Virus record (IMG/VR): IMGVR_UViG_2698536618_000023 | Direction: 5' to 3' (one strand) | Length of the DNA: 17,568 bases | From: a virus | Taxonomy: Duplodnaviria > Heunggongvirae > Uroviricota > Caudoviricetes | In this document: in pieces, positions 1 to 3,000 of the stretch | Numbering within the stretch: position 1 is the first letter of the stretch | Layout: every line of letters begins with the position of its first letter | Position numbers: made by a program

Positions 1-3000
1 TCATAGATTCACTGTTCGGGCGTACCAGACACTGCTGCGAGAAATCATGGATAACCCTTGAAATTTCGTCAGATTACCGTTAAGTACGGCCTTGTAGATG
101 CGCTCAGGCTTCCTGCCGTCAACACGTTTACCAATCTTTTTAAGGGTCTGCATAGCTTCTCTATAGTCGTCCTTATGACGTTCCAATAGCTCAGCTTCAG
201 CGTGATAGCCAAGTTCGACCATCTTATTAGCAACGACCGTGGCAACTTCAGGCATCTCAAGGATAGCCTCAAAGGCTGCATAGACCATGTCCTCGAAATC
301 TTCAGAGACCCATCCTGCATACTTGAGGGTAGCCTGTTTGTCTGCGTAGGTTATGCTTTCAATACCAATCTTCTCGACGTGCATTTTTTGCATGTCGGTG
401 AGCCTCTTTGTTACCTTGCCGCGCCACTGAGAGGGTAGCTTATTGTTAGGTAATCCGAGGATTTTCCATATTTCTGTAAGATTCCACATGCCAGACTCAT
501 TAGACTTAAAGCTGTGGCCTTCAATAGTGATAATATGACCTGCATGTTTATGTTTATTGTTCATTGCTTGGTTACCTTTTAAATATGCACACTAAACCGC
601 CCCCTACTGGCCCACTCAAAGTCCCCAAGCGAAGGGAGACCAGCAGGACAACAGGATGCAAACAGAATGACTTTGAGATTGAATGAATGATTGTGTCGTA
701 GCTGTGCGGAGCTACTGTATGGTGAAGCGCGAGAGGTGGAACTTTGAGAGACACGTGGTGAGTGGTTCGGAGTGTGTCTCCTATTAGTAAGTCGTATTGA
801 TTTACTACTGGGAGGGTCTCTGAGCCACGCTAGGCATCAGGCCATACGAAACTACATGGCACCTAAAGAATGGCGTACAGGACCATACAGGGCCATACAG
901 TTAGCTTCTGGGTAATGCCTTGAGGAGACCTATAGGTTTGGTGATTGATTATTATGAATATCATCACCTCTTAAGGTATTCCCTTAGAGTCAATCTTTAA
1001 TTGTGTCTTTAAGTAGACTATAAGTTAATACTTAAAGTTACTCTTTAATTGGTCTTTAATTAATCTATAATTTAATACTTTAAGTTAATCTTTAATTAGT
1101 CTTTAATTAATCTATAATTTAATACTTTAAGTTAATCTTTAATTGTGTCTTTAAGTAGATTATAAGTTAATACTTAAAGTTAAGCCCCTGTAGGGGTTAG
1201 AGACCATAATTAATATGATGTCTAAGGCTATTCACGTATCGACTGACCCAGAGCACACAGGAAGCATTCATTTTAAGTAGAACGCTTGGTGTCTGTAATT
1301 GGTCATCCCGCCCCTGAAAGGATGCGATAAGTTACGGTTAGAGTTAAAGCTACCTGAAGTAGTAGCAAGTGTCATCATAGAGAGAGACAGAGAGAGACAG
1401 AGAGAGAAAACTTTTTGTGTCCCTTCTCCCTATAGTGAGTCGTATTAAATATGCTTGACAAGTAGTGAAAACCATGAGTCAAAACATGACCACACAAAGG
1501 GTCACACAGGACCACATAGGACCACAAAGGGGACCATAGGAATAGTAGCAAGTGTCATCGCCTATGGTCATCGCCTATGGTCATCGCCTATGGTCATCGC
1601 CTATGGTCATCCTTAAGGGGCCACAACCTCCTTATAAACATCAGCCATCACATTGACCAGTCTATCAACCTCAACCTCTTTAGCATAACGGTCGTAAGTA
1701 ATAGACCCTGAACTATGCCCCATGATCGCCTGTGCATACGCCAACTCGACCCCATGTTGTTTTAACTGGGTCGCAACTGTATGTCTAAACGAGTGAAACG
1801 CTAAGCCGCTACGGTCTGCGAGGACTTTAGGCAACAACGTCCGATTAAACCATTTACTCACCTGCTCACCGTAACCGTTCTTCATGAGGCGAAGACCATC
1901 GAACACCATAGCGTCATCACCATCAGCGCCTCTACGGGTCTCAACCAACCTCATAAAGTCAGCCAATATAAAACCATAGGCCCCATCGACCAGAGGCACA
2001 CAGCGGTCACTATGAGCGTTCTTGATGCTCTTACCGGGTAGACTACTATCGTCTTCATTGATATGAATATAAACGGTTCCCGCCTCAGTGGTCCTGACGT
2101 CTTTGACCTGTAGTTGGGCTATTTCATTGAGTCTCGCCCCAGTGATAGCAGCCAAGGCGGTAACATAATAATGATACGGCTTACCAGAAGGTCTCTGTGA
2201 GTAAACTTGGGCGGCAGCCAGTAGTTGTCCTACCTGCTCCGTAGAGAAAGCATTACGCGCCTCAGAGGCTTTACGCTGGGGAACCTTAAGCTCTAGCCCT
2301 TCTGTCATATTCTTTTTAATCAGGTCATTACGCACGGCCCACTTGAAAACAGCCGCCATCTTAATGAGATATTTATTATTGATGGTAACAATATCCAGAC
2401 AATCGGTTTTATCCTCACGACCTAGCAGGTCAACCAACGGAACATCTTTGAAACGCTGCTTACGATTCTTCGGCAATTGCTGGAGGATATCCCGAACCCT
2501 AAGCATATCCGCACGAGCTAACACATTGGCGTCAGCATTGAGGCCCAGATAATCAAAAACTTCGATTAACGCAGCATGAGAAGCTTTGTTTTCTCGTAAT
2601 GTTGCTGGCTTCCAGTTCTGGGCGTTTTCCTGCTCGTACTGCTCAAAGAGAGAAGCAACGGTTACGCAGTGTTTGCCTTCAGTAATGCTTGTTTTTTGGG
2701 GAGCACTAACAGATAGAGTTGCAGAGGCTTGGCCATTAGCCCCAGCAGCAGCATCAAATCCATCTATATAATCTATAAGTGGCTGGCTATCTCCCGCTTC
2801 AATGCGCTTCATGCAGGCCTTGAGTACATTAAGAGCCTCATTAATATAGCGATGCTGGTCAATAGTCAGTGGCTCGCTTGCCAGAGCATGGACAAGATTC
2901 TCTCCCACTTCCCCATACTGGTCACGGTATAGATCTCTCATATCTGGCTCGAAGAGGTCTGAACGACCTGTAGACAACTCCCACTCTGCGATGTCCCTCA

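Follow-up and report, generated by a model that had tools for sequence, protein, structure and literature searches.

A tRNA-Gly island family carrying exact promoters of T7-group phages: a candidate module switched by phage RNA polymerase

The IMG/VR virus record IMGVR_UViG_2698536618_000023 is a stretch of 17,568 nucleotides (here called the window), whose left part holds a small integrative island of Escherichia coli with a tyrosine integrase, a noncoding region and a KilA-N-like cargo gene. An exact class III promoter of phage T7 lies between the integrase and the cargo and is directed at the latter. We propose that the island is a module switched by phage RNA polymerase (RNAP), silent until a cognate T7-group phage infects the cell, and we consider this the probable explanation of its layout. 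A preliminary description of the window had named a satellite of T7-group phages, a temperate T7-like element and a T7-RNAP-triggered module as candidates; the third is the best supported, given that exact promoters persist in diverged relatives, that the promoters of different phages are represented and that all of them face the cargo.

The promoter TAATACGACTCACTATAGGGAGA, at 1447-1425 on the minus strand, is identical to phi6.5, phi9, phi10, phi13, phi17 and phiOR of the T7 genome, which bears out the full 23/23 agreement noticed earlier. It is the sole match in the window at up to three mismatches (0 expected; 0 of 200 shuffles). The second position, CAATACGACTTACTAATAGGAGA, had been described as an 18/23 variant 218 nt upstream of the KilA-N gene, and this too is confirmed: it lies about 218 nt before the ATG at 564, and short-word blastn against the whole T7 and K11 genomes gave phi1.1A (5827-5860) as its best T7 match. 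In relatives of the island, this position is occupied by bona fide consensus promoters of phages; activity of the window's own copy is doubtful. Sites resembling sigma-70 promoters are not enriched (6 observed vs 9.0 ± 2.8 expected) and none was found just upstream of the cargo; the cargo operon is without a recognisable host promoter. No intrinsic terminator was found after the cargo.

The first 3,300 nucleotides of the window are 100% identical to the chromosome of E. coli E110019, where the island measures exactly 4,264 bp and is bracketed by 23-bp direct repeats of the 3' end of tRNA-Gly(CCC) (glyU). In the direction of transcription the integrase comes first and is followed by about 1,050 bp of noncoding DNA, after which lie the KilA-N-like gene and a gene for a 157-residue protein (ORF157). 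This second cargo gene lies 0.1-0.9 kb beyond the window's left edge, as does the left repeat, which is found 0.9 kb beyond that edge. Past the left repeat, E110019 has ordinary chromosome, the ETT2 region, and hence there is no T7-like genome to the left. With no RNAP, capsid or terminase gene within the 4,264-bp island bounded by attachment (att) repeats, the earlier suggestion of a temperate T7-like element or a prophage end is excluded.

Elsewhere in E. coli, 351 complete genomes contain a match to the noncoding region, with identities that range widely, and the promoter 23-mer occurs in about 210 of 5,426 complete genomes (about 4%). Among the copies listed nearly all are chromosomal, and every locus that was opened proved to be this island; the listed exceptions are engineered copies, situated in lacZ, in a 16S gene of a laboratory EcN and at three places on plasmids. 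In relatives whose noncoding DNA is only 76-83% identical, with many indels, the T7 23-mer is nevertheless exact, and in some it is duplicated together with its flanks. Exact despite its diverged flanks, the promoter appears to be under selection. Contigs from human-gut metagenomes contain a shorter variant, in which the exact promoter directly follows an extra gene. Exact T7 promoters are ubiquitous in vectors, and the engineered copies just mentioned show that some E. coli records do contain them; nevertheless, we give practically no credence to vector or engineered contamination, or to a chance promoter-like sequence, as the source of the island's promoter. The flanks match no vector in the plasmid collection, the sole exception being a partial integrase match at 80% identity. 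The island sits at its tRNA attachment site in the closed chromosomes of about 200 natural genomes, from isolates of many hosts and countries and with natural variation, it is present in the gut metagenomes as well, and the chance expectation for the 23-mer is close to zero.

The island belongs to a family found in at least 13 other genera of Enterobacterales and in Pseudomonas. Its integrase is at least 81% identical across E. coli, Klebsiella, Serratia, Yersinia, Citrobacter, Raoultella, Plesiomonas and others, and a scan of species-representative genomes with this protein found 17 loci, all but one of which lie in 13 other genera. In most of the 17 the integrase is closely preceded by an intact tRNA-Gly(CCC), and in six the second repeat is recognisable, giving island sizes of 6.2-7.6 kb. 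T7-type promoter cores at these loci number 24 on the integrase strand, all 0.3-2.5 kb downstream of the integrase, and one on the opposite strand. The promoters of the family include exact late promoters of different Autographiviridae, namely T7, K11, the KpV766 group and the Vibrio N4 group, and the part recognised by the polymerase varies with the host (TAATACGACTCAC, AATTAGGGCACAC, AATAACGACTCAC, ATGAGACCCACAC, ACTTAACTATCAC, AATTAACCCACAC and CAATACAACTCAC). One E. coli/Klebsiella variant (loci L007 and L013) combines exact promoters of T7, of K11 (class III, as checked against the annotated K11 genome) and of the KpV766 group, all at the same position and in the same orientation. The last of these, AATTAGGTAGCACTATAGGGAGA, occurs in many copies per genome in 40-41-kb phage contigs of IMG/VR, one of which is identical to Klebsiella phage KpV766. 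The islands of Proteus and Kluyvera carry AATTAACCCACACTATAGGGAGA, the repeated promoter of Vibrio phage N4 (ICP3 group), and an island of Pseudomonas fluorescens with the same gene order carries TTAAAAACCCTCACATATAGGGAGA. The strict core pattern used in the scan missed further promoter-like variants, among them AATAACGACTCACTATTAGAGAGA, ATTAACGACTCACTATAAGAAGA and the T3-like ATTAATCCTCACTAAGGGGAGGA, at L016 and L017 (Pectobacterium) and L025 (Kluyvera).

These family data also bear on whether the island could be the decayed remnant of an integrated temperate T7-like phage, of which the left end, with integrase, promoters and early genes, survived the deletion of the rest. Temperate Autographiviridae with integrases do exist (e.g. 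LUZ100, PMC10134795), and the T7-like promoters, the origin-like AT-rich DNA and the 5' stem-loops in the noncoding DNA would fit such an ancestry. Nevertheless, islands of one compact layout, their att repeats intact, are found from Pseudomonas to E. coli, a recurrence that independent decay would not produce. Moreover, single islands hold promoters of three phage polymerase specificities, none of the island's proteins is similar to a T7 or K11 protein, blastn against 50,697 phage genomes gave no match, and the phage matches of the KilA-N-like protein are weak and confined to Vibrio phages of myovirus size. We regard a remnant as highly improbable.

In the mechanism that we propose, the cargo would be silent in the uninfected cell. 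A cognate phage would then make its single-subunit RNAP, which would initiate at 1430 (+1) and, as is usual for class III promoters, transcribe at a very high rate. The transcript would begin with a structured leader of about 870 nt and continue into the KilA-N-like gene and ORF157. The products would interfere with the phage or kill the infected cell (abortive infection). The phage replisome may in addition amplify the island by way of its origin-like AT-rich array and primase sites, a possible but tentative extension of the scheme. The features on which this mechanism draws are collected in Table 1.

Table 1. Features of the island in the window
Feature	Position	Strand	Description
Exact T7 class III promoter TAATACGACTCACTATAGGGAGA	1447-1425	-	23/23 (-17 to +6), directed at cargo genes
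Second promoter position, T7-type variant CAATACGACTTACTAATAGGAGA	799-777	-	18/23, closest to T7 phi1.1A
Initially transcribed region	1379..1424	-	Covers purine tract and TGTGTCCCT; predicted 5' stem-loop GGGAGAAGGGACAC...CUCUCUC
Structured block, candidate noncoding RNA	1205..1345	-	Hairpins H1 and H2 downstream of the first promoter
CCCC-TACA-GGGG hairpin	1184..1197	-	Overlaps family-conserved motif ACAGGGGCTTAAC
AT-rich TTAAAG/CTTTAA array	983..1183	-	47-bp unit x4.2, 78-88% A+T
10-bp repeat array TACAGGACCA x2.5	876..900		Contains a T7 primase recognition pentamer
Structured 5' leader	565..676	-	Nested three-stem structure, ends before the Shine-Dalgarno sequence, directly upstream of first cargo gene
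Upstream repeats	1448..1612		Conserved 45-bp element beside promoter, 10-bp array 1493-1530 and 13-bp x4.5 array 1554-1611
Tyrosine integrase	1613..3244	-	543 aa; Pfam PF00589 (Phage_integrase) E 2e-18; phrog_1 E 3e-42
KilA-N/Ant-like putative DNA-binding protein, first cargo gene	1..564	-	187 aa; Pfam KilA-N E 9.5e-4; phrog_129 E 7.8e-10
Right boundary in the window strain	3372..3390		Degenerate attachment remnant GGGGCGAAGGGAAC; separate P4-like satellite abuts

The noncoding block had earlier been read as a mimic or relative of the T7 concatemer junction, where genome ends meet. The individual observations behind that reading stand. The purine tract (1379-1407, AGAGAGAGAC x2.9), the TGTGTCCCT that abuts the exact promoter (1416-1424), the hairpin CCCC-TGTA-GGGG preceded by CTTAAAGTTAAG (about 1172-1197), the CTTTAA/TTAAAG array and the flanking 10-bp arrays are all present where they had been placed; no open reading frame (ORF) of at least 60 aa lies between 800 and 1420, and the order given there for the T7 junction is broadly right when set against the actual T7 end sequence. 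The reading itself is not supported by alignment to the T7 and K11 ends. Read directly, these ends share the termini TCTCACAGT... and ...TCTCTGTGTCCCT, the latter followed by ATCTGTT. The best match of the T7 terminal-repeat end to the element reached only E = 3, and the noncoding region has no exact ATCTGTT, only TTCTGTTT at 666. We rejected the view that the 9-mer TGTGTCCCT and the CT tract imitate the right end of T7, as TGTGTCCCT is inverted relative to the promoter, lies inside the predicted 5' stem-loop and is absent from relatives, which substitute other stem-forming sequences (GGGAGAGGGAAGAC..CTTTCCCTCT). The CCCC/GGGG hairpin was likewise rejected as a mimic of the T7 terminal-repeat hairpin, as its arms are not conserved; both vary in relatives, and it is the motif ACAGGGGCTxAAC that is kept instead. 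In blastn searches of 600-1700 and 800-1424 against the 50,697 phage genomes there was no match at E<=1e-5, and at E<=10 there were only weak matches (E = 2) to the left ends of T7-like Yersinia phages. The cargo proteins show no similarity to T7 and K11 proteins, the terminase included.

Outside the promoters, similarity to T7 and K11 exceeds chance in one respect only, namely to AT-rich DNA of the origin type close to phage promoters. A T7 origin combines a T7 promoter with an AT-rich region downstream of it and with primase sites, and all three components are present in the block; because of this, the block looks like a T7-type origin and not like a packaging site. In local alignments against the T7 junction region, with the exact promoter masked and shuffles as control, the TTAAAG array scored 47 against the AT-rich DNA just downstream of phiOL (shuffles 23.5 ± 2.3), and the score in the inverted orientation was not significant. 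Short-word blastn matched the array units to AT-rich segments directly after phi1.05, phiOR, phiOL and phi6.5 of K11, with one extra match near the K11 right end, and in pairwise alignments the array resembles the regions of K11 phi1.05, T7 phi1.1B (the primary origin) and phiOL. Recognition pentamers of the T7 primase (GGGTC/TGGTC/GTGTC) number 25 in the 1,048 bp of noncoding DNA vs 4.9 ± 2.2 expected, an enrichment of about five-fold, and their density there, 23.9/kb, exceeds both the 3.5/kb of the remaining window and the 8-10/kb of T7 and K11. The island shares with the T7 origins (phi1.1A/1.1B primary; phiOL and others secondary) a promoter, an AT-rich stretch of the TTAAAG type and nearby primase sites, and differs from them in that its AT-rich array begins about 240 nt past the promoter, not immediately, and is a 47-bp tandem repeat. 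The repeats at 1448-1612 are all rich in primase pentamers and vary in copy number between strains: there are about 2 copies of the 13-bp GATGACCATAGGC in O78 strain 3, 4.5 in the window (1554-1611) and about 13 in ET881 (L004, 5040-5215), and in several strains a 118-bp unit that contains the promoter and the 45-bp element upstream of it is duplicated. The repeats around the promoter are evolving rapidly.

The transcript that would start at the exact promoter is predicted to be structured, the fold of the 866-nt leader being stronger than that of shuffled sequences (z = -4.5). Its 5' stem-loop resembles the leaders of the late mRNAs of T7 phi10 and K11 phi9. Further downstream, hairpin H1 pairs CATCC (1324-1320) with GGATG (1308-1304) around the conserved loop TTTCAGGGGCG. 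Across the family the loop takes the form TTT(G)ACAGG(G)GCG and the stems covary (CATCC/GGATG, TTCCC/GGGAA, TTTCC/GGAAA and TCTCC/GGAGA). This covariation was checked by direct pattern extraction, because MAFFT with RNAalifold, applied to the promoter-proximal block of both sequence types, mis-registered the stems and returned only a weak structure of 8 pairs. Hairpin H2 (1287-1262) is, by reading of the alignment, retained in relatives with unrelated sequences. Blocks homologous to 1205-1345 occur at L013, L014, L019, L024 and L026, and a related loop motif appears again further downstream (ACAGGGGCTTAAC / ACAGGCGGAAACTCAAAG). A coding reading of the conserved block as an ORF of 26-36 aa was rejected; an extra T in the H1 loop of ET881 shifts the frame and L007 has stops. 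Directly before the first cargo gene lies a leader element of about 110 nt, conserved family-wide from Pseudomonas to E. coli even where the downstream gene is different. In an alignment of 15 sequences, RNAalifold predicted 31 pairs, 13 of them with compensatory changes. The TTCTGTTT within this leader is one mismatch from the T7 class II pause signal ATCTGTT. The leader as a whole may act as a processing site, in the control of translation or as a polymerase pause. Counterparts of the leader lie at 3961-4072 in L007, about 9960-10080 in L026 and about 5900-5990 in L123. An Rfam scan of positions 1-3400 gave nothing at E<=1.

The tyrosine integrase that had been recognised beside the promoter block is confirmed (Table 1), and it shares the strand of the phage promoters, which lie downstream of it. 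As for the KilA-N gene, the reading frame and its phrog_129 match stand, and the domain assignment itself is weak, the Pfam match being below the gathering score; one relative is named 'KilA-N domain-containing' by NCBI. Homologues of this 187-residue protein (KilA-N187) were found only in islands of Enterobacterales and Pseudomonas, and its AlphaFold model (pLDDT 84) has only weak winged-helix matches in the PDB, none at E<0.1. PADLOC gave no match for the integrase or ORF157. The window's island, with KilA-N187 and ORF157 as its only cargo, is the minimal form of the family. The common layout is about 6 kb long and runs on one strand: tRNA-Gly, integrase, a variable gene, and the phage promoter or promoters with noncoding DNA. 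After these come a Rha/Ant/KilA-N-like gene and small ORFs, then DUF6971 and a protein of 330-380 aa, and lastly the second repeat. The core pair of the larger islands, DUF6971 (136-163 aa) followed by the 330-380-aa protein, is present at L007 (1480-3112), L013 (11134-12822), L016, L017, L018, L022, L024, L026 and L123. Both genes are absent from the window's island, and the 330-380-aa protein has no sequence match in Pfam, NCBIfam, PHROG, PADLOC or the PDB.

The variable gene next to the integrase is very often RAZR/PD-T7-4 (PADLOC E 8e-99), a proven anti-T7 defence, which overlaps the integrase stop codon. RAZR is an abortive-infection HEPN RNase that the portal rings of T7 and T3 activate (Nature 2026, PMC13017515), and the authors who discovered it remarked that it 'often overlaps an integrase gene' (Vassallo 2022, PMC9519451). 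In neither paper is there mention of phage promoters, a promoter-driven operon or a noncoding region at the RAZR locus. The gene occupies this slot at L007 (5060-5692), L013 (8609-9241), L008-L010, L012, L014, L018, L019, L024 and L027, and other small genes take the same slot in Pectobacterium, Kluyvera, E. coli ECMA0423 and Pseudomonas. The space between integrase and promoters looks like a variable hotspot for defence genes. Because RAZR is co-resident in relatives, because the first cargo gene is of the KilA-N/Ant/Rha type and because of the logic of the switch, the output of the module is probably anti-phage.

Several points weigh against a module switched by phage RNAP. The second promoter of the window is degenerate, with five mismatches including +1, and its core has no exact match in IMG/VR. 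Some other promoters of the family are also without an exact cognate in IMG/VR, and the N4-type promoter is found in Proteus and Kluyvera, not in Vibrio; because of these imperfections, the match between the promoters and the phages of each host is only suggestive. The enrichment of primase sites is inflated by the tandem repeats, in which the sites are not independent events, and the similarity of the AT-rich array to phage DNA could be partly compositional. On the side of the cargo, KilA-N187 has only weak family matches (the best in PADLOC being PD-T4-2_B, E 1.3e-4) and no fold match, the structure model of ORF157 is unusable (pLDDT 44), and the window's variant of the island is without RAZR. 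Lastly, the island's anatomy, its family, the identity and diversity of the promoters, the RNA covariation and the origin-like similarity are observed directly, and from these sequence data we infer promoter use during infection, the anti-phage outcome and the amplification.

The origin-like features equally raise the prospect that the island is a satellite of virulent T7-group phages, activated by their RNAP, excised, replicated as concatemers on the phage replisome and packaged as multimers of about 40 kb in helper capsids, in the manner of a natural T7 phagemid. It has an integrase and precise att repeats, and T7 is able to replicate, package and transduce engineered plasmids that contain its origin together with a pac site and a terminal repeat (PMC13236587, PMC9860248). 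The integrase is closely conserved in many genera; as the island lacks transfer genes, something else must move it. In the larger relatives, the core of DUF6971 and the 330-380-aa protein could serve such functions. Against this, the island resembles the T7 and K11 terminal repeats and junctions no more than would be expected by chance, neither TGTGTCCCT nor the hairpin arms are conserved, no pac similarity was seen, no cargo protein resembles a T7 or K11 protein, a terminase or a capsid protein, and no initiator or primase gene is recognisable in the island. No attP junction (AAAGGTCATGGAGCGGGCGAAGGGAATCGAAGTATCGAAG), and no excised or tandem form of the island, was found in the 5,426 E. coli genomes or in the JGI metagenome contigs, although such absence is weak evidence. 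Metagenome contigs of 4.2-4.6 kb had been candidates for excised circles and were rejected, since they begin in the tRNA and represent the integrated form, as do all 11 of 11 JGI contigs. The six loci that the integrase matched in IMG/VR have identifiers resembling entries from isolate genomes rather than virome contigs. The integrase lies upstream of the promoters, and therefore phage RNAP would not induce it in the integrated state. Finally, the RAZR of relatives aborts infection upon portal assembly, which fits poorly with a need for helper capsids. Altogether we judge a satellite unlikely. Bolder, and to our minds less likely again, is a scheme in which these widespread 4-8 kb tRNA-Gly islands of Gammaproteobacteria would parasitise virulent T7-group phages by borrowing in turn their RNAP, through exact late promoters that are sometimes of several specificities, their replisome, through an origin mimic, and their capsid, with structured RNA, cargo and RAZR crippling the helper. 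If it were true, the islands would spread between genera as multimeric transducing DNA, and the window's island would be the founding example.

At its right boundary the island of the window strain departs from that of E110019, which has an intact tRNA-Gly(CCC) at the position equivalent to 3372-3390. ARAGORN detected no tRNA within the window, and the 23-bp att core is unmatched there at up to three mismatches. With its right repeat reduced to GGGGCGAAGGGAAC, the island of this strain may have lost the ability to excise. The remainder of the window (3372-17568) is a separate P4-like satellite that stands in tandem with the island. It encodes a YeeE/YedE-family membrane protein (4838-6076), a DNA primase family protein (9786-11609) and a P4-type integrase (16315-17568), together with Rha/AntA-like, Icd-like and SSB genes, and its close relatives are found in bovine and Shiga toxin-producing E. 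coli.

We know of no natural bacterial chromosome with exact promoters of a phage RNAP, and a search of the full-text literature found neither phage-RNAP promoters in chromosomes nor T7-group satellites described, and nothing on this island family apart from RAZR. As the switch of a phage-responsive integrative island, the arrangement is unprecedented in natural systems. If our reading is true, it amounts to a new principle of infection sensing, in which the presence of a T7-type polymerase is itself the switch. Such a switch would be specific and fast, and to evade it a phage would have to change all of its own late promoters. The combination of T7, K11 and KpV766-type promoters suggests that one island could cover several phage genera. 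The family also gives RAZR/PD-T7-4 a genomic home, and it links a conserved set of proteins and at least two covarying RNA structures to infection by T7-group phages. About 4% of E. coli isolates and many Klebsiella possess sequences that would be expected to respond to T7-type polymerases, which is relevant to phage therapy that uses Autographiviridae and to T7 expression systems in wild strains. Whether T7-group phages have satellites is an old question, and it can now be tested directly with standard strains.

Among known systems, engineered T7 phagemids and transducing plasmids (Chung & Hinkle 1990, as cited in PMC13236587 and PMC9860248) are likewise small DNAs that depend on T7 functions through a T7 promoter and AT-rich, origin-type sequence, and islands of 4-7 kb would fit the 40-kb head as multimers. 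The island differs from them in being natural and integrated, in having an integrase, and in lacking a recognisable terminal repeat, junction or pacB/pacC. RAZR/PD-T7-4 is likewise aimed at T7-group phages and is encoded in many members of the family; it differs in its position upstream of the phage promoters and in sensing portal protein rings (PMC9519451, PMC13017515).

The satellites P4, PICI/SaPI, PLE and PICMI resemble the island as small, integrase-bearing chromosomal islands that are geared to one phage group and stay silent, as the island is predicted to do, and PICMI is of similarly minimal size. The late promoters of P4 respond to the transcription system of its helper. P4 hotspots carry defence genes (PMC9519451), as relatives of the island carry RAZR. 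The island would differ from all four in its activation, which would proceed by direct recognition of its promoters by the phage polymerase and not by derepression or a helper activator. It differs further in combining several polymerase specificities in one island, in having virulent T7-group phages as its targets, and in being without a recognisable replication initiator or capsid, terminase or packaging-redirection genes and without any excised form found. Closest in its logic is the 'triggered suicide' defence that Djordjevic and colleagues reportedly devised in Lactococcus in 1997, in which a phage-specific promoter was fused to a lethal gene. The shared logic is that of a host-encoded cassette behind a promoter that only the infecting phage can switch on; triggered suicide is man-made, whereas the arrangement in the island is natural, mobile and widespread.

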